Below, in pieces: positions 1-8,163 of a DNA stretch of 14,597 nucleotides (position 1 is its first letter; the number at the start of each line of letters is the position of its first letter). Made by a program: the position numbers and the translations under genes. The notes beneath the pieces were generated by a model. That model was not told the origin of the DNA and did not search any database. It saw only the letters and a list, made by a program, of their open reading frames with translations. The DNA is from Promethearchaeota archaeon. GTDB lineage: Archaea; Asgardarchaeota; Lokiarchaeia; Sigyniarchaeales; SOKP01. The stretch lies in contig SDNY01000094.1 of assembly GCA_004524535.1 (NCBI GenBank), positions 1 to 14,597 of the forward strand, read 5' to 3'.

Positions 1-3000
1 CCGAACGGAACCCAAATAGGAACACCGGATAATATGACGTTTATTGGCGGAATTAATTACAATTATACCTGGAACGTGAATTCATATGAAGCATTGGATA
101 ACTATTATTTCAATATCACCGCATGGGATACCTCGAGCAATGAAGCGAATGAAACACGATATTTCAATATAACCTCACCAGGAGATACGACCGATCCGAT
201 AATAAATATTACATACTATGATGGATATGCTGAATATCTCACAGGTTCAATTGAAGTCAATGTCACAGCATATGATGAGACTTTATTAAGAGAAGTTGCT
301 CCTGTACAAATTATATTCTTCTATCCAAACGGTACTATTATAGCAATTTATAATATGACTCATTTGAGTGGTGATATCTATAACTATACATGGAGTGTGA
401 ATTCTTATTCGCCATATTTTAACTATTACTTCAATATAACAGTATACGATAATAACACTAATCAAGCGTCGGCTATGAGATATTTTAATATAACTGATAA
501 CATCAATCCAAGTATAAATATCAACGAATATGACTCTCAGGCAGATTATGGTACTGGATCTATATTTGTTAACGTAACCGCAACTGATAACCACAAATTG
601 CGAGCTATTAATCCAGTTCAGTTAGAAATATATTATCCGAACGGTACATTATTAGGGATTTACAATATGATATATCAAGGAAATGATATCTATGAATATA
701 TTTGGAATGTTGATAACTATTGGCTTTGGAACAACTATTATTTCATTGTTGCAGCATACGATAATTCAAGTAATTCATATTCTACAGCTCAGACCAAATT
801 CAATATAACAGATACAATATGTCCAAATGTTATCATAGACAGCTACATGGATGAAGGTGAGTATGGTAACGGGAAGATCGAATTATACGCTACGATTACA
901 GATAACCATGCAATACAACTTCCAATCAACATCACCTTTTATTATCCAAATGGAGCTGTTATCGGTATATACGAGATGATTATTCTTGGGAATGACGAGT
1001 ACAAATTTACATGGTCTACCTTAGGTTATGATCATGACTTTAATTATTACTTTATCATCAATGCTTCAGACCCATCAGGAAACTTGAACGAAACAGAAAC
1101 TCGAATATTTAATATTGTAGATTCAGTTAGACCATCAATAACCGTTAATGACTATAATGAGATTGTTGAATATGGAATAGGCGACTTAAACTTAACTGTT
1201 ACAATAACAGATAATTATGGTCTAAACGAAACGAATCCAGTTGTTTTAAAAATTTACAATAGTACTAATGATATTATCTCGCAAGATTTGAATATGATTC
1301 ACTTAAGTGGAGATCTATATTTTTATAGTTGGAATCCAGGAACAACTCCCGTAGGTGATAATTATTACTTTAAAATCACGGCAACTGATAATAACACAAA
1401 TTCACGTACTACTAACAAAAGATCTTTCGATATAATCGATACTGTTAATCCATCGGTTATAATCATCTATAATGATGATGAAGCTGCTTATGGAACAGGC
1501 TCAATTGAAGTCAATATAAGCGCTTATGATAATTATCAATTGAATTCAACTAATCCTGTACAAATAACATTCTATGAAACAGATGGTACGATTATAGTAA
1601 CAGATCTAATGATCTTAATTGGACCAAATTACACCTATAACTGGCTTGCCGATCCTTATTATCAACCTGAACTTAATTACTATTTTACTATTATAGCTTA
1701 TGATTCTTCAGAGAACTCAAACACGACAACACAAGTATACTTTAATATAATAGATGAGATTATACCTATTATTCATGGGGCAAGCTATGAATCTCAAATT
1801 GCCTATACTAATGGAACTCTCACTGTTATCTGCAATATCACCGACAATCATGAAATCGAGTATGTTCAAATATTGCTCTTCGAACCAGATGATACACCAA
1901 TAGGAACATTTTATATGAACGAATCGGGAGACTATTATTCTTTTAGCTGGTTTAATCCAGAAACTTATAATCTTGATATTGATTATTACTACAATATTAC
2001 CGCTTATGATAAATCAGGAAATATCAATAATCCTTTCTGGAAATTCTTTGATATAATCGATATGGGAACGCCTAATATTACTATTACTTATTGGACAACT
2101 GATGTAGAATGGAGTACAGGAACATTTAAAGTAAATGTAAGTATCGAGGAGAATTATCAATTAGACGATGTACTAATTTCACTGTATTATGTAAACGGAA
2201 CTGTATTTGTTATCAATGATACTATGAATCAATGGGGTTCAGATGATAAGGAGTATTCTTATGAATATTTCATGGGTGGAGAACCACTAGAAGGAGGTTA
2301 TCGCTTTAAAATATTTGCGAATGACACGTCGGGTAATTTTGAGGACACTACGTATACGCTATTCGATGTCGTAGATACTGTGAAACCATGGGTATATAAT
2401 GTACAACCAGATGATACACAAGATGATGAATATCCTGGTGAGATTGAAATCACTGTAACTGTGACGGATAATTATAGACTAAGAACTTTTGATCCAGTTG
2501 AAATAACATTCTATTATCCAGGAGGTTCTATCTTAGGAACTTATACAATGAATTCGATTGGTGGAGATAATTATAAATATACTCTCAGTGGATTAAACAA
2601 TTATGCACCAGCTGCGACATATTATTTTACAATTACGGCTTATGATAGTTCATTAAATTCAAATACAACCATCGCACAAAACTTCGAGATATTAGATATA
2701 ATTATATTCCAAGATCTGTATACTTACAAAGACTACATGTTAAAAACGACAAAAGTAAGATATTATCAGAATCCATCGAAATCGAATTATCTAATAGTTA
2801 TATCACCATTAGTTGCTCAGATTGCTCATATTGAAAAGCAATTAAAATTGGGAATAAATCCTAACACGACTTTAGATGCATATAGGCAATCAATCAGAGA
2901 TGCAATTGCAGCCGCATTAGACGCACATCCAAATGCGTATGTTTATATCATGGATTCGGATCTCTATTACACTTATAGTAAATCAGTTATAACTCGTGAT

Positions 3001-5811
3001 TTCAATGGATTTTTACTTTACGCGAAAAGTAATGTATGGGCGAGAGAGAACTTTTATTTCTCGTATTCTGTACTTGGCAATCCAAGAGATTACTATAGAT
3101 ACACTTTTCAAAAATATCAGTATTATATTCGAAATAAAGTGTTACAATTAAAGACCAGTTTTTACGAACATACAAATGTCTTACTTTTAGGTGATTCCCT
3201 CGAGTTTCCAGAATATTGGGTTTATTCCTATTGGGGTGGTAGCTACAGATATTACTTTTCAGACAATTATTATCTCTACTATGGTTCACAAATGTTAGGT
3301 GCTGTTGGTCGATTGCCAATTGAACAAGCAGCGTCATATTTTGCAGAAGTAAAAAATGTTAATTTTGCGAAAATTGCTCATATAGGAGGATATAGGGGAT
3401 CTTATAATTGGAACTATTATAAACAGTATTACTTATTTTACAGACAATTCTATCTTTGGGGCAAAGGATATTCCTATGTTTATTGGGAACCAGATATGCA
3501 ACCTACAACGTCTCGTTTGGCGAACTCGGATTTGATCATTACAGGCTTTAATGGTCATATGTATTATGGACCATGGTATGGAGGAATGGCGTATAATCCG
3601 AATAATATGGATCCTTCAATTATGATGGGATATACAAACGCAATCTCAAACACAATTTATTACGACTTTTCATTAGGAACATTTGTCTCAGCATACGGTA
3701 CTCAAGCGGTAGATAATGGTGTTTCTATTTTAGGTAGTACGGGGGATACATATGTAGTGTCATATACTAATTATTTAGATAGTGCATACATCCAAATGTA
3801 TATTCTTCATGAAATGTTTAGAGGCAGATATTCAACTTTAGGACAAGTGTACAGCGCTGCGATTAATTATTATAAATACTACTGGTTCGTAGCTGAAATT
3901 CGTTTATTAGGAGATCCGGGTCTAGATGTAAGCAGTTTAGATGACCCTGGAGAAGAAGTTTTAGAAGATCTGCCCGAAAATTTTGAAGCTCAGTATTGGA
4001 ACTTAGATTATGGAATTAATGATACAGGACAAGGAGAAATGCTTTATTTCAACATCACAGATAAATATACAACGCCAGGTGTGACGGAAATGATAGCAGA
4101 ACAATCATTTGCATCTGTATTTGGAGGAGACTTAGTTGTACCAACCTTTGTATATTACCTTGAAATGAATAAAAATCAATCACTAGTAGATGTAAAACTA
4201 AAATTAGCGGATAATGTAACAATACCGATAACGAGTCCTATAACACTTGATGGATATCTCCTTACTGAAAATGGTAAAGTCGCAATCCCTAATGTCAACA
4301 TTGAAGAACAGACAACGTATCCAAAAATACAAATTGAGGAGACTGAACTTTCATGGAAACGAGTTTATACCATAACGGTATTTCCAGCGGAATGGAAAGA
4401 GGGTCAACTGGCGTTTATCTGTTCAAGGGATATAAAATTAGAATTTACAATAGAAAACGTTACTTTGGCACCGAACGCTACTCTGAGTTATGAAGAAGTT
4501 GAATTTTCCAAACTCGTTTATTCTACAAAGAATTATACACTTGGATTTAACATCAATAATTTGATCGATAGCACCGAAAACGCCACCATGGTAAATATAA
4601 CGGTTTTAATTCCATTTGATTTGACTATTTTAGATTGTACATCTGGAAATTTAACTATTCAAGAATTATTATGGTGGAATATTACGTGGAACGTTGGAAA
4701 TATTACTTACAGTAAATATTTATTCATTGATTACTTAGCACCTGATGCAATTTCTGATTCATTCGAACGAAATATTACTATAATAGTAGAATATTTCTCA
4801 GAAGGAGGAATAAAGTATAATAAATACAATGTTACTCTAATACTGAAATATTTAAAGGATAATTTAGTCAATCTAAAGTTGGATGATATAGTCATAGAAG
4901 ATATAGCGCAATTTTACGTCTCTGATACTTTAAGCATAGAATTTATTGTCAATAATTCTGGTCATTTAAAAATCAGTAAAATTCAAGTACAGGTTCTTGC
5001 CGATGGTGTAGAAATTTATTCATATACCATTGCTTCGCTTAATCCTGGGTTTTATGTGATATTTGCGATATCCACTTCATTCACTAACGCTGGAGATCAT
5101 GATGTTGATATACAGATAAATGCACAGGCCTTAGGAATCGAATCTAATGAAGTTGATAACTTCTATTCCACTACAATTTCGGTATTAGCTGCTCCAGCGG
5201 GTCCAGGAGGTGTTGCTCCAGCTGGCGGTGGTGGAGGTGGTGGAGGTGGTGAAGAAGAATTTCCGTTCCTAATCCTTTCAATCATAATCATAGCAATAAT
5301 AGGCTGTGTTGTAATAGTCGGAGTGAATGCTGTAAGAAGACGTGGCATGGTTAGCCTCAAAGAGGCAAAAAAAGTAGCAAAAAAAGAAATTGATAAAGAA
5401 ACAGGTATTGAGGTCGAACCAAAGAAGCTAGTTTGTATTGTACATAGGGGTCCTGTAGCGGGTGGGGTCTATATATGTCCTAACTGCCAATCGATATTTT
5501 GTGAGAAATGTGCATTAGCTTTAAAGAAAAAGGGAGAAAATTGCTGGACATGCGATCATGAGATTACTATACCTGGAGCTAAAAAGATTTCTAAGGAAAA
5601 AACAATAGTTAAAGAAAAAGATAACATGAAGAAGAAAAAAATTGTTGCGACTGTAATTCCAGATGGAGAACATAAAAAGAAAACAAAACAAAAAGATGCC
5701 AAATCATCGAAAGCAGATGAACAAGAGAAATCACAGACAAAAGAATCTAAATTTAGAATAAGAGCAAAACTTAAAGATAAAACTCCCGAAAAAGAAGATA
5801 ATGGGAGATAA
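1..5811 (+). CDS. Giant single-pass cell-surface protein, 5'-partial: Ig-like repeats, C25 (gingipain-like) fold lacking Cys, C25-propeptide-like, DUF11-like, CARDB, poly-Gly, TM, cytoplasmic RING-like Zn finger, Lys-rich tail
   Basis: The frame is open from base 1 (PNGTQIGTPDN before the ATG at 34) and starts mid-repeat, so the true start lies upstream. C25 motifs: NYLIVIS (2785), VLLLGD..FP (~3178), SD.YY, VGRLP (3304), NGH (3550-3558), LLGDP (3904). CARDB-like segment 4867-5184 (VNNSG, LNPG, ESNEVDN). Gly9 at 5224-5250. TM at ~5260-5325 followed by RRR. Zn finger at 5434-5553. Confidence 0.9.
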   Translation, partial: PNGTQIGTPDNMTFIGGINYNYTWNVNSYEALDNYYFNITAWDTSSNEANETRYFNITSPGDTTDPIINITYYDGYAEYLTGSIEVNVTAYDETLLREVAPVQIIFFYPNGTIIAIYNMTHLSGDIYNYTWSVNSYSPYFNYYFNITVYDNNTNQASAMRYFNITDNINPSININEYDSQADYGTGSIFVNVTATDNHKLRAINPVQLEIYYPNGTLLGIYNMIYQGNDIYEYIWNVDNYWLWNNYYFIVAAYDNSSNSYSTAQTKFNITDTICPNVIIDSYMDEGEYGNGKIELYATITDNHAIQLPINITFYYPNGAVIGIYEMIILGNDEYKFTWSTLGYDHDFNYYFIINASDPSGNLNETETRIFNIVDSVRPSITVNDYNEIVEYGIGDLNLTVTITDNYGLNETNPVVLKIYNSTNDIISQDLNMIHLSGDLYFYSWNPGTTPVGDNYYFKITATDNNTNSRTTNKRSFDIIDTVNPSVIIIYNDDEAAYGTGSIEVNISAYDNYQLNSTNPVQITFYETDGTIIVTDLMILIGPNYTYNWLADPYYQPELNYYFTIIAYDSSENSNTTTQVYFNIIDEIIPIIHGASYESQIAYTNGTLTVICNITDNHEIEYVQILLFEPDDTPIGTFYMNESGDYYSFSWFNPETYNLDIDYYYNITAYDKSGNINNPFWKFFDIIDMGTPNITITYWTTDVEWSTGTFKVNVSIEENYQLDDVLISLYYVNGTVFVINDTMNQWGSDDKEYSYEYFMGGEPLEGGYRFKIFANDTSGNFEDTTYTLFDVVDTVKPWVYNVQPDDTQDDEYPGEIEITVTVTDNYRLRTFDPVEITFYYPGGSILGTYTMNSIGGDNYKYTLSGLNNYAPAATYYFTITAYDSSLNSNTTIAQNFEILDIIIFQDLYTYKDYMLKTTKVRYYQNPSKSNYLIVISPLVAQIAHIEKQLKLGINPNTTLDAYRQSIRDAIAAALDAHPNAYVYIMDSDLYYTYSKSVITRDFNGFLLYAKSNVWARENFYFSYSVLGNPRDYYRYTFQKYQYYIRNKVLQLKTSFYEHTNVLLLGDSLEFPEYWVYSYWGGSYRYYFSDNYYLYYGSQMLGAVGRLPIEQAASYFAEVKNVNFAKIAHIGGYRGSYNWNYYKQYYLFYRQFYLWGKGYSYVYWEPDMQPTTSRLANSDLIITGFNGHMYYGPWYGGMAYNPNNMDPSIMMGYTNAISNTIYYDFSLGTFVSAYGTQAVDNGVSILGSTGDTYVVSYTNYLDSAYIQMYILHEMFRGRYSTLGQVYSAAINYYKYYWFVAEIRLLGDPGLDVSSLDDPGEEVLEDLPENFEAQYWNLDYGINDTGQGEMLYFNITDKYTTPGVTEMIAEQSFASVFGGDLVVPTFVYYLEMNKNQSLVDVKLKLADNVTIPITSPITLDGYLLTENGKVAIPNVNIEEQTTYPKIQIEETELSWKRVYTITVFPAEWKEGQLAFICSRDIKLEFTIENVTLAPNATLSYEEVEFSKLVYSTKNYTLGFNINNLIDSTENATMVNITVLIPFDLTILDCTSGNLTIQELLWWNITWNVGNITYSKYLFIDYLAPDAISDSFERNITIIVEYFSEGGIKYNKYNVTLILKYLKDNLVNLKLDDIVIEDIAQFYVSDTLSIEFIVNNSGHLKISKIQVQVLADGVEIYSYTIASLNPGFYVIFAISTSFTNAGDHDVDIQINAQALGIESNEVDNFYSTTISVLAAPAGPGGVAPAGGGGGGGGGEEEFPFLILSIIIIAIIGCVVIVGVNAVRRRGMVSLKEAKKVAKKEIDKETGIEVEPKKLVCIVHRGPVAGGVYICPNCQSIFCEKCALALKKKGENCWTCDHEITIPGAKKISKEKTIVKEKDNMKKKKIVATVIPDGEHKKKTKQKDAKSSKADEQEKSQTKESKFRIRAKLKDKTPEKEDNGR
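184..2694 (+). repeat. Eight complete, diverged tandem Ig-like repeats of ~102-107 aa, plus a partial one at 1-183
   Basis: Units start D-x3-P (DTTDP, DNINP, DTICP, DSVRP, DTVNP, DEIIP, DMGTP, DTVKP). They share Y-G-x-G, TDN, V-x-I-x-FYYPNG, M, Y-x-Y-x-W and YYF-x-I-x-AYD-x-S-x-N, and end F-[ND]-I. They carry many N-x-S/T sequons. Confidence 0.9.
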
Positions 5812-6480: not shown

Positions 6481-8163
6481 ATGTTAAAGAAATTGTATCA
6501 TCAAAATTGGATTTTTGAGTGCCCAGATGCGGTAATGACTTGTTCTATTTTAAAATGCAATGAGGAAGCATTTTTAATATTTGGGGGACACGATAAAACT
6601 CTCTACCTTATGGATAATGATTTGAGGATATATGATAAGGTATCCTTTGATGGTTGGTGCAGATGTACTTATCCTATAGATTTAGATGGTGATAAATGCG
6701 ATGAAGTATTAGTGGGAACTGGTGATGGACATTTCGTAGTTCTAAAACTAACAATGCCTACATCTGGTTGCGAAACTTCAGAAAACACTATGAAATTAGA
6801 GGGTATCATGAATTATAAGTTAAGCGGTATGGTTAACTGCTGTGCTGCCGGAGATTTGTCTGGTGATAATAATATCGAGTTAATGTTTGGTGGTGAGGAT
6901 AAAACCGTAAGAGTATTTAAAAACGTTTTTTCTGAAAAGCCGTTCTTAACTTTTTATTATGATTCATGGGTAACCGCATGTTGCTTTGGTTATTTAAAGA
7001 TTCCAGAATTTGATAAACCTGTTGCTTCATTATTGGTAGGAACAAGAAATGGTTTACTCCAATTAATTCATATGAAGAATGATAACCCTGAAATTCTCTG
7101 GCAACAAAATGTTTATGCTGAAATTAATGATATAAAAATAGGAGATATAACGAATGATGGCTTAAATGAAATTATTGTAGCCTCAGACGATTCATATGTA
7201 AAAATTTATGATTCTAAAGGGAAAAGAATTAAATTTATATTTATTGAAGAAGTCATTAAGGGGCAAAAAAAAAATCCTAAACGACTAAATCGCCCAAAAT
7301 CACTCCTTATTGAAGATATCGATGGCGATAAAGCAAATGAAATTGTAGTTGGATGTGCAGATGGGACTTTAAGAATTTTTCATAATATAAAATTAAACTC
7401 GAAAGATATTGAGTTAAAATGGAAAACGACAACTAAACTTTCTGCCTCGATTAAAAATATATGTGCTTGTATGAACAAGCAACAAAAAGTAAAAAACATA
7501 ATTTATGGAGGATATGAGCGTACTATTAGAAATATTTCTGATTTTGAATGGGGGAAAAAACCACTTCTTAAAATTCCTATAAAATTTAGAATTCCTCAAG
7601 TTTCTATAAAAGAACAATCAAATCAATCCGAGGAAATTTTGAAAATTAAAAAAGTTCCAACAAACTTGAGGGGATTTATCAAAGAATTGCTTGATAAGCA
7701 AGGATTTTATATGACCTTAGACTTGTTAATTAGCGATTTAATGGACAAGGGTTATACTCGAAAAGAAATCAATGAAGAATTAGAATTCTTAAAAAGTAAA
7801 GGCGCTATGTGCTATGAAAAAGTGGATATAGATGCCTGGAGTTTAGTGAATGAATTGATTGATGAATTGATTAAAACTGAGGCAAATACATCAAAAAAAC
7901 CTCATAAAATCGAAGAAGGTACTACAGAAAAATCTGAAGAACCTGAAGCTTCAACCTCTGATAAAACGGAGGAAATAGATAAGATCATAATTAATATTTT
8001 AAACGAACAGAAAATCATACCAACAAAAGAGGAGTTGGTTTCTTCAGTTGCTTCAAAAGGATATAATAAAGATGCTATTAATCAAAGGATAAATGCTTTC
8101 AAAAATAAAAATAAAATCAAATTTTCAAGAAGCGATCCACGTGGATGGAGTATTGTAGATTAA
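6481..8163 (+). CDS. Cytoplasmic FG-GAP/WD-like beta-propeller protein (BBS2/ITFG2-like motifs) with two C-terminal winged-helix-like repeats
   Basis: Four D-x-[DST]-[GN]-D-x3-E motifs (DLDGDKCDEVLVG, DLSGDNNIELMFGGEDKTVRVF, DITNDGLNEIIVASDDSYVKIY, DIDGDKANEIVVGCADGTLRIF). No signal peptide or TM. Two related ~63-aa units at 7657-7845 and 7969-8160 (L...KGY...I...K.K......WS). Confidence 0.85.
   Translation: MLKKLYHQNWIFECPDAVMTCSILKCNEEAFLIFGGHDKTLYLMDNDLRIYDKVSFDGWCRCTYPIDLDGDKCDEVLVGTGDGHFVVLKLTMPTSGCETSENTMKLEGIMNYKLSGMVNCCAAGDLSGDNNIELMFGGEDKTVRVFKNVFSEKPFLTFYYDSWVTACCFGYLKIPEFDKPVASLLVGTRNGLLQLIHMKNDNPEILWQQNVYAEINDIKIGDITNDGLNEIIVASDDSYVKIYDSKGKRIKFIFIEEVIKGQKKNPKRLNRPKSLLIEDIDGDKANEIVVGCADGTLRIFHNIKLNSKDIELKWKTTTKLSASIKNICACMNKQQKVKNIIYGGYERTIRNISDFEWGKKPLLKIPIKFRIPQVSIKEQSNQSEEILKIKKVPTNLRGFIKELLDKQGFYMTLDLLISDLMDKGYTRKEINEELEFLKSKGAMCYEKVDIDAWSLVNELIDELIKTEANTSKKPHKIEEGTTEKSEEPEASTSDKTEEIDKIIINILNEQKIIPTKEELVSSVASKGYNKDAINQRINAFKNKNKIKFSRSDPRGWSIVD

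Follow-up and report, generated by a model that had tools for sequence, protein, structure and literature searches.

A divergent gingipain-fold domain with asparagine at both catalytic positions in a giant surface protein of a Promethearchaeota archaeon

The locus and its giant surface protein

The window analysed here is one entire contig of 14,597 nucleotides (SDNY01000094.1) from the genome of a Promethearchaeota archaeon (GenBank assembly GCA_004524535.1, here G000). Its label in our set of contigs, C25, is distinct from peptidase family C25. The contig begins inside a long open reading frame (ORF; positions 1 to 5811, plus strand), of which the 5′ end is open and which encodes 1936 amino acids of a protein designated P0001. 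The ORF is intact, with 1936 codons uninterrupted by a stop or a frameshift and a G+C content of 30.5%. P0001 is a giant type I membrane-anchored surface protein. Its extracellular part contains a divergent gingipain-fold domain (C25-like, clan CD; positions 2776 to 3957, plus strand; residues 926 to 1319), recognised with AlphaFold2 (AF2), VIA-align, Foldseek, hhalign and ESM Atlas, in which both residues of the catalytic dyad are replaced by asparagine. This domain is probably a pseudo-protease. The actin (441.5 bits) and profilin (30.7 bits, which exceeds the cut-off) encoded by G000 fit an Asgard-type archaeon.

The N-terminal part of P0001 is made of nine tandem immunoglobulin (Ig)-like repeats of about 105 amino acids each (positions 1 to 2700, plus strand), recognised by the spacing of a NYYF-type motif at residues 34, 141, 245, 348, 454, 559, 661, 766 and 873. 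When the repeat region was scanned alone, it matched the Pfam family Ig_TMM62 with 29.7 bits. Tandem Repeats Finder detected no tandem repeat in the DNA of positions 1 to 2700, suggesting that the repeat copies are old and diverged. The repeats carry many N-x-T/S sequons (NIT, NVT and NYT). Downstream of the divergent domain lies a middle region of about 310 amino acids (positions 3958 to 4899, plus strand), which is conserved across the family of homologues according to a BLASTP alignment with the homologue P0002 and for which a Pfam scan returned no family. It is followed by a CARDB domain (positions 4900 to 5169, plus strand; residues 1634 to 1723; PF07705, E = 7.8e-8, 32.9 bits), a Gly-rich linker with a tandem GGT/GGA repeat at positions 5223 to 5251, and a predicted transmembrane helix (positions 5260 to 5334, plus strand; residues 1754 to 1778; hydropathy above 3 over 19 amino acids).

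An earlier note on this DNA had described positions 2785 to 3924 (residues 929 to 1308 of P0001, 380 residues) as a C25-like domain devoid of Cys. The C25 scaffold motifs that it named are all present in the ORF and in order: YLIV (2788 to 2799), LLLGD (3181 to 3195), SDNYY (3259 to 3273), VGRLP (3304 to 3318), NGHM (3550 to 3561), IYYDFSLG (3655 to 3678), ILGS (3727 to 3738), TLG (3835 to 3843) and LLGDP (3904 to 3918). The count of Cys in the 380 residues is indeed zero. P0001 as a whole has 12 Cys in 1936 amino acids, seven of which are located in a zinc-finger-like C-terminal tail, so that a stretch of 380 residues should have about one. Because the P0001 ectodomain is poor in Cys throughout, the Cys-free stretch alone is uninformative, and we rejected the missing Cys as evidence in itself. 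The domain is rich in Tyr, which makes up 15.3% of the 380 residues and 14.8% of the 399-residue segment used for structure modelling (positions 2764 to 3960), compared with 5.2 to 7.7% in nine homologues. These Tyr residues are concentrated near the former active site and in the loops that come after VGRLP and before the former His strand.

The homologous family and the fold of the domain

A phmmer search of 1.84 billion representative proteins with the domain as query (E up to 0.001) returned six proteins including P0001 itself, namely P0002 (36% identity, E = 3.9e-61) and P0003 to P0006 (E = 4.5e-14 to 2.4e-8) in addition to P0001. P0007 and P0008 came from a profile search of longer proteins, and L035 and L036 from a metagenome scan, which also found again the contigs of P0002 (L034) and P0004 (L037). 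The family has ten members, P0001 and nine others (P0002 to P0008, L035 and L036), with domain identities of 24 to 36%. A word-indexed protein search with region 900 to 1340 of P0001 returned the query alone, the family profile at "near" lengths in the protein search returned P0006 alone, and a profile scan of genome contigs revealed no distinct locus. One family member is labelled by its source as a "hypothetical protein, Methanosarcinales archaeon" (a metagenome-assembled genome). The metagenome contig of P0002 has a G+C content of 30.9%, similar to that of the window.

The closest homologue of the P0001 domain is P0002, with 35 to 36% identity. By BLASTP, residues 909 to 1795 of P0001 align with residues 396 to 1264 of P0002 (35% identity, E = 1e-140), and the homology of P0001 to the other members is collinear over the whole of this region. 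The homology thus extends beyond the domain, and, as judged from sequence, the conserved unit is a cassette of about 870 amino acids that comprises the C25-like domain, the middle region, CARDB and/or DUF11, and a transmembrane anchor where the C-terminus is present. The modules N-terminal to this cassette are variable: Ig-like repeats in P0001, LamG in P0002, VWA in P0004 and P0005, and beta-helix repeats in P0007.

The domain is not recognised by standard sequence searches, and this counts against its assignment to the gingipain fold. It matched no Pfam family at E up to 1 when scanned alone, and the whole of P0001 matched only CARDB in Pfam and nothing in NCBIfam; the curated cut-off of PF01364 (23 bits) is not reached by P0001. 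Neither a phmmer search with the domain nor an hmmsearch with the family profile found a C25 chain among the PDB chain sequences, for which the best match (E = 2) was an unrelated viral NS-S protein. A six-frame search of G000 with PF01364 found two other contigs (C7 and C53) and missed the window. BLASTP between the domain and the two C25-like proteins encoded by those contigs gave scattered short matches, none of them collinear, and the best one (E = 0.007) lay outside the C25 domain of the protein on contig C7 (L001). The lack of matches in Pfam, NCBIfam and the PDB sequences, together with the low predicted local distance difference test score (pLDDT; 31.9) of an AF2 model from the single sequence, would be expected if a low-complexity, Tyr-rich stretch of some other fold resembled C25 by chance in its short motifs.

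Structure prediction from the family argues strongly against such a chance resemblance. AF2 on the ten-member family alignment (A4) gave a mean pLDDT of 69.1 and a predicted template modelling score (pTM) of 0.81. Because no canonical C25 sequence was put into A4, this test of the fold is independent of them. In a Foldseek search of the model against the PDB, chains of the gingipain RgpB (one of 1cvr and two of 4ief) ranked first to third, with E between 9.4e-8 and 7.7e-7; the next places went to Kgp, Craspase, separase and a caspase, in that order. VIA-align gave Z scores of 26.1 (4ief_B), 25.8 (1cvr), 24.5 (6i9a_A) and 24.4 (4rbm) to these four RgpB and Kgp entries, with 293 to 298 aligned residues, a root mean square deviation of 3.1 to 3.5 and an identity of 13 to 14%; the alignments spanned model residues 4 to 399, and residues 5 to 398 were aligned for the first three entries (RgpB, RgpB and Kgp). 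The Z scores of other clan CD folds were lower, at most 16.3 for separase, 13.4 for Craspase and 9.6 for caspases, so that the C25 fold proposed in the earlier note is borne out. The model also contains an N-terminal helical insert (helices H15-54).

Profile comparisons and protein embeddings point in the same direction. We collected 31 genuine C25 domains from G000 and its relatives (alignment A2), in which the catalytic His and Cys are invariant (31/31), and compared them with the family profile (A3) using hhalign. In local mode, the C-terminal half aligned with a probability of 70.5% (E = 3.9e-5), pairing GwHG with aGHG, sC with aC, and LLGDP with LLGDP; the local probabilities of only 67 to 70% count among the points on the other side. 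With a lower alignment threshold, the alignment was collinear from LLLGD through LLGDP, with the additional pairs LLLG/VLLxG, FSDxxY/TDxYYA, VGRLP/VGRxP and ILGS/IGxIGA, and the global mode gave a probability of 96% (E = 2e-9). Because the extended alignment to the 31 C25 domains is collinear, the motif order is above chance. Among the family members, P0003 comes closest to PF01364, with a sub-threshold match of 19.4 bits (E = 6.7e-4; cut-off 23) over the LLLGD-to-VGRLP part, and the family profile weakly matched a canonical C25 gene in another genome, G282 (E = 2.5e-4). In ESM Atlas, the top match of the domain scored 0.95 and had 176 of 256 features in common with a Peptidase_C25 cluster; 23 of the 30 matches were clusters with C25 only, and one more combined C25 with a CWB2 domain. 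The sequence comparisons and the model thus support a gingipain fold, and chance resemblance is close to refuted, an extremely improbable account of these data. The domain has the fold of a gingipain catalytic domain and lies outside PF01364 by the cut-off of that family.

The catalytic columns and the candidate pseudo-protease

The positions of the catalytic dyad were read from four MAFFT alignments and two profile-profile comparisons, all of which agreed. All nine homologues have the His in the context x-[W/Y]-H-G and the Cys in the context [S/T/P]-C, and hhalign matched both columns to the His and Cys that never vary in the 31 C25 domains. By profile alignment, this His and Cys correspond to the GHG His and Cys244 of RgpB. 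The GHG His is residue 211 of the RgpB chain by count on the printed alignment, and the dyad is given as His221/Cys244 in the literature (PMC4357240). In P0001, the His column is occupied by Asn1184 (AAT; positions 3550 to 3552, plus strand), located in "GFNGH", and the Cys column by Asn1213 (AAC; positions 3637 to 3639, plus strand), located in PSIMMGYTNAIS; each column holds the canonical residue in 9/9 homologues and 31/31 canonical C25 domains. The Gly after the His column is kept (Gly1185). According to an excerpt of the same article, the S1 pocket of RgpB involves Asp163, Gly210, Gly212, Gln282 and Trp284 (PMC4357240).

P0001 and P0002 align without gaps over the 37 residues that start at "DLI" and end at the Cys column; as read off the printed block, the matching residues are G, P, N, P-S, G and T. 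The assignment of the Asn residues is therefore independent of gap placement. In clan CD, each dyad residue sits where a strand ends on its C-terminal side, and the two strands correspond to beta3 and beta4 of caspases (PMC4357240). In our model, N263 and N292 (Asn1184 and Asn1213) are located three residues beyond two consecutive strands (E257-260 and E285-289), a predicted placement of both Asn that fits this rule. When F-N-G-H of P0001 is set against Y-H-G-N of P0002, the His and Asn around the conserved Gly look swapped.

The earlier note had regarded the His of NGHM as the catalytic His and IYYDFSLG as the nucleophile strand, with a Ser encoded at positions 3670 to 3672, and had left two options, an inactive domain or a protease with Ser as its nucleophile. 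The alignments assign both residues to other columns. His1186 (CAT; positions 3556 to 3558, plus strand) is at +2 from the catalytic His column, and Ser1224 (TCA; positions 3670 to 3672, plus strand) comes 11 residues after the Cys column and belongs to a variable loop whose pLDDT is under 50. The column of Ser1224 is occupied by K, S, W, G, V or E in the homologues, which speaks against the Ser option. Because both dyad positions are Asn, canonical cysteine-protease chemistry is impossible for the P0001 domain, and the option of inactivity is supported, as far as sequence goes, more strongly than the note had argued, given His and Cys in 9/9 homologues.

A hydrolase that still works could nevertheless be imagined, with His1186 as the base and Ser1224, Thr1212 or Ser1216 as the nucleophile. 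The persistence of a His two residues from the catalytic column, the hydroxyl residues flanking Asn1213 and the retention of 40 of the 48 invariant columns of the family would agree with it. However, besides the displacement of Ser1224 into a variable loop, the homologues that possess the Cys also have T, S or P at −1 and an invariant Ser at +3. Because these Cys-bearing homologues share them, Thr1212 and Ser1216 are scaffold residues rather than replacements. The column of His1186 is N, S or D in 9/9 homologues, and we know of no clan CD enzyme that uses Ser or Thr instead of Cys. Exotic chemistry at this site is unlikely, and we consider a working hydrolase of this kind very unlikely. An Asn-lyase-type self-cleavage at Asn1213 was also considered and was dropped, as no feature supported it.

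The replacement of the dyad contrasts with the retention of the scaffold. We defined 48 family-invariant columns, in which one residue is common to all the homologues present (at least eight of nine). P0001 retains 40 of them, including the buried motifs LLGD, EFPE, FSD..Y, GR and LLGDP, and both dyad columns are among the eight that changed. Four of the changes are conservative (I997, F1036, L1062 and V1237), and N1002, S1246 and the two dyad columns are non-conservative. If eight changes were distributed randomly over 48 columns, both dyad columns would be among them with a probability of about 0.025, which is a rough value as the columns are unequally constrained. At Ser1246 (positions 3736 to 3738), the invariant Asn of the family "G-N-T" motif (9/9 homologues) has become Ser. 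This is the only other non-conservative change in an invariant column, apart from Asn1002, where Tyr is found in 8/8 homologues present and a partial homologue has a gap.

These data also bear on the possibility that the domain is a decaying remnant, a passive in-frame spacer between functional N-terminal repeats and the membrane anchor. The loss of both catalytic residues with the alteration of eight of the 48 invariant columns, the drift in composition to 14.8% Tyr, the identity of just 35 to 36% to the closest homologue, and the lack of an orthologue of the domain in the other eight genomes of the genus that were searched are all expected of a decaying sequence. On the other hand, free drift over 390 amino acids would be expected to erase features such as the 40 retained columns with their buried motifs and a model with a pTM of 0.81, and an AT-rich gene has been kept open over 1936 codons. 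We therefore regard a decaying spacer as unlikely.

The sequence itself appears sound. In the Logan assembly of run X1, which is probably the source sample, positions 2764 to 3960 are identical, with no differences at a depth of 49. Because this independent assembly is identical, the Asn codons are not one assembler's slip. In a marsh metagenome (run X2), two contigs of 151 nucleotides match positions 3157 to 3305 and 3803 to 3952 at a depth of 2, one being 90 to 95% alike and the other under 90% (19 and 13 differing letters); the dyad codons are outside both contigs. These short sequences hint at a relative in another habitat. A third run, X3, yielded no matching sequence.

We thus consider it likely that positions 2776 to 3957 of P0001 encode a very divergent gingipain-fold domain in which both dyad residues have become Asn, and that this pseudo-protease is kept as a structural or binding module. 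The domain has both properties that define a clan CD pseudo-protease, a kept fold and replaced dyad residues; its retention as a structural or ligand-binding module is what we infer. In the mechanism that we propose, the domain would no longer cut and would serve the ectodomain as a structural or ligand-binding module, possibly gripping peptides or neighbouring domains without cleaving them. If the active members of the family process themselves or cut neighbouring proteins, this step may be absent in P0001 or may be supplied in trans, for example by L001.

Some further observations have to be set against the pseudo-protease interpretation. The active-site loops of the model (residues 262 to 276 and 298 to 309) have a pLDDT under 50, and the placement of Asn1184 and Asn1213 in three dimensions is derived from the alignments and the positions of secondary structure elements. 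A His is found two residues off the catalytic column, and the hydroxyl residues Thr1212 and Ser1216 lie on either side of Asn1213. The proteolytic activity of the homologues is presumed from their sequences. The sole hint of a binding role is the enrichment in Tyr; the Tyr-rich loops are compatible with a binding surface, which falls short of proof.

Distribution, related systems and the cytoplasmic tail

The family of P0001 is rare and patchy. The family profiles (A1 and A3) detected no member in 59 relatives of G000, nor in the 398 phylum genomes other than G000 that were searched, many of these genomes being incomplete. Members were thus found in one of 60 lineage genomes and one of 399 phylum genomes, G000 being the only one both times, and the weak match in G282 is the canonical C25 gene mentioned above. 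The earlier note had suggested a survey of the nucleophile column in Asgard homologues; such homologues did not appear in these genomes. The nine other family members all have His and Cys. Genes matching the canonical PF01364 occur in 53 of the 60 lineage genomes, counting G000. In G000, the canonical gene (L001; contig C7, positions 760 to 2910, minus strand) encodes an apparently intact protein of 716 amino acids that scores 183.9 bits and has the GHG and DAC motifs and a C-terminal hydrophobic anchor. The second C25-like protein of G000 (L002; contig C53, positions 1024 to 2277, minus strand; 417 amino acids) gives a very weak match of 16.6 bits and has ILGDP at its C-terminus.

The closest counterparts in our structure comparison, RgpB and Kgp of the gum-disease bacterium Porphyromonas gingivalis (MEROPS C25; 1cvr, 4ief, 4rbm and 6i9a), share with the P0001 domain a two-subdomain alpha/beta fold, which aligns over about 295 residues, and their scaffold motifs VLLxGD, xDxYY, VGRxP and LLGDP follow one another as in P0001. 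They are likewise secreted or located at the surface, and more beta-sandwich domains follow the catalytic domain. The P0001 domain differs from them by an identity of just 13 to 14%, the lack of a PF01364 match and the replacement of both His and Cys by Asn. Its family has an additional residue in the His motif (G-W/Y-H-G instead of G-H-G) and the N-terminal helical insert. P0001 has a C-terminal transmembrane anchor and belongs to an archaeon, whereas the gingipains are exported by the type IX system. L001, as a canonical archaeal Peptidase_C25, is similar to P0001 in clan and fold family, and it too is a surface protein that carries a hydrophobic anchor at its C-terminus. It differs in its high PF01364 score and its GHG and DAC motifs, while the P0001 domain gives no PF01364 score and carries Asn in both dyad columns. 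The nine homologues share the cassette with P0001, but they keep His and Cys, differ in their N-terminal modules and have about half the Tyr content of P0001.

Several pseudo-proteases of clan CD have been described, such as c-FLIP, the caspase-like domain of Raptor and the pseudo-protease domain of separase, in which the fold is reused for binding or scaffolding. These belong to families C14 and C50 and are found inside eukaryotic cells, whereas the P0001 domain is extracellular, C25-type and archaeal. To our knowledge, pseudo-proteases of this clan are known mainly from the eukaryotic cytoplasm, and P0001 adds an archaeal extracellular case to them. A thin search of the literature turned up no account of a comparable gingipain homologue that is inactive, and the term "pseudoprotease" there referred to the unrelated CspA.

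In the literature on archaeal C25, as far as our excerpts cover it, C25 is treated as an active extracellular peptidase. C25 peptidases in sediment archaea, including Promethearchaeota, are routinely counted as evidence of extracellular protein degradation, according to the excerpt of one such study (10.1101/2025.03.11.642519). The present family bears on this practice in two ways. An entire C25-like subfamily escapes the standard profiles, and membership at the level of the fold does not imply activity, as one member has lost both catalytic residues and kept the scaffold. As pseudo-enzymes are common, no new principle is involved; what is new is a divergent C25 subfamily with one probably dead member. 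P0002 (His/Cys) and P0001 (Asn/Asn) form a natural matched pair for the study of possible non-cutting roles of a surface-tethered gingipain fold.

On the cytoplasmic side of the transmembrane helix, P0001 has a Cys-rich zinc-finger-like module (positions 5434 to 5565, plus strand; residues 1812 to 1853) with seven Cys and a His in the pattern C-x13-C-x2-C-x4-C-x2-C-x10-C-x2-C-x-H, followed by a Lys-rich tail that reaches position 5808. The resemblance of the module to RING and B-box fingers is weak. Its Pfam matches are all sub-threshold (E = 0.007 to 0.05, including C1 fingers), with ANCHR-like_BBOX at E = 0.0073 and zf-RING_2 at E = 0.023. The ESM Atlas matches (0.81 to 0.85), which include RING-finger clusters of Promethearchaeota, serve as leads only. 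The Cys-rich tail was not seen in the printed sequences of the family homologues, and no BLASTP alignment of P0001 with six homologues extended to residues 1812 to 1853. With this tail, P0001 might be imagined as a transmembrane receptor composed of a Tyr-rich, non-cutting ligand-binding ectodomain, a single transmembrane helix and a cytoplasmic RING/B-box-like zinc finger, although we hold this to be quite doubtful. If it were true, the signal from binding outside the cell would be passed on to a process inside it, either ubiquitin-like or otherwise mediated by the zinc finger.

The gene after P0001 (positions 6481 to 8163, plus strand) encodes a beta-propeller of 560 amino acids that resembles BBS7, BBS2 and ITFG2 or FG-GAP-type propellers (PF23743, E = 5.9e-25). 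The families matched by this propeller are best known from eukaryotes.

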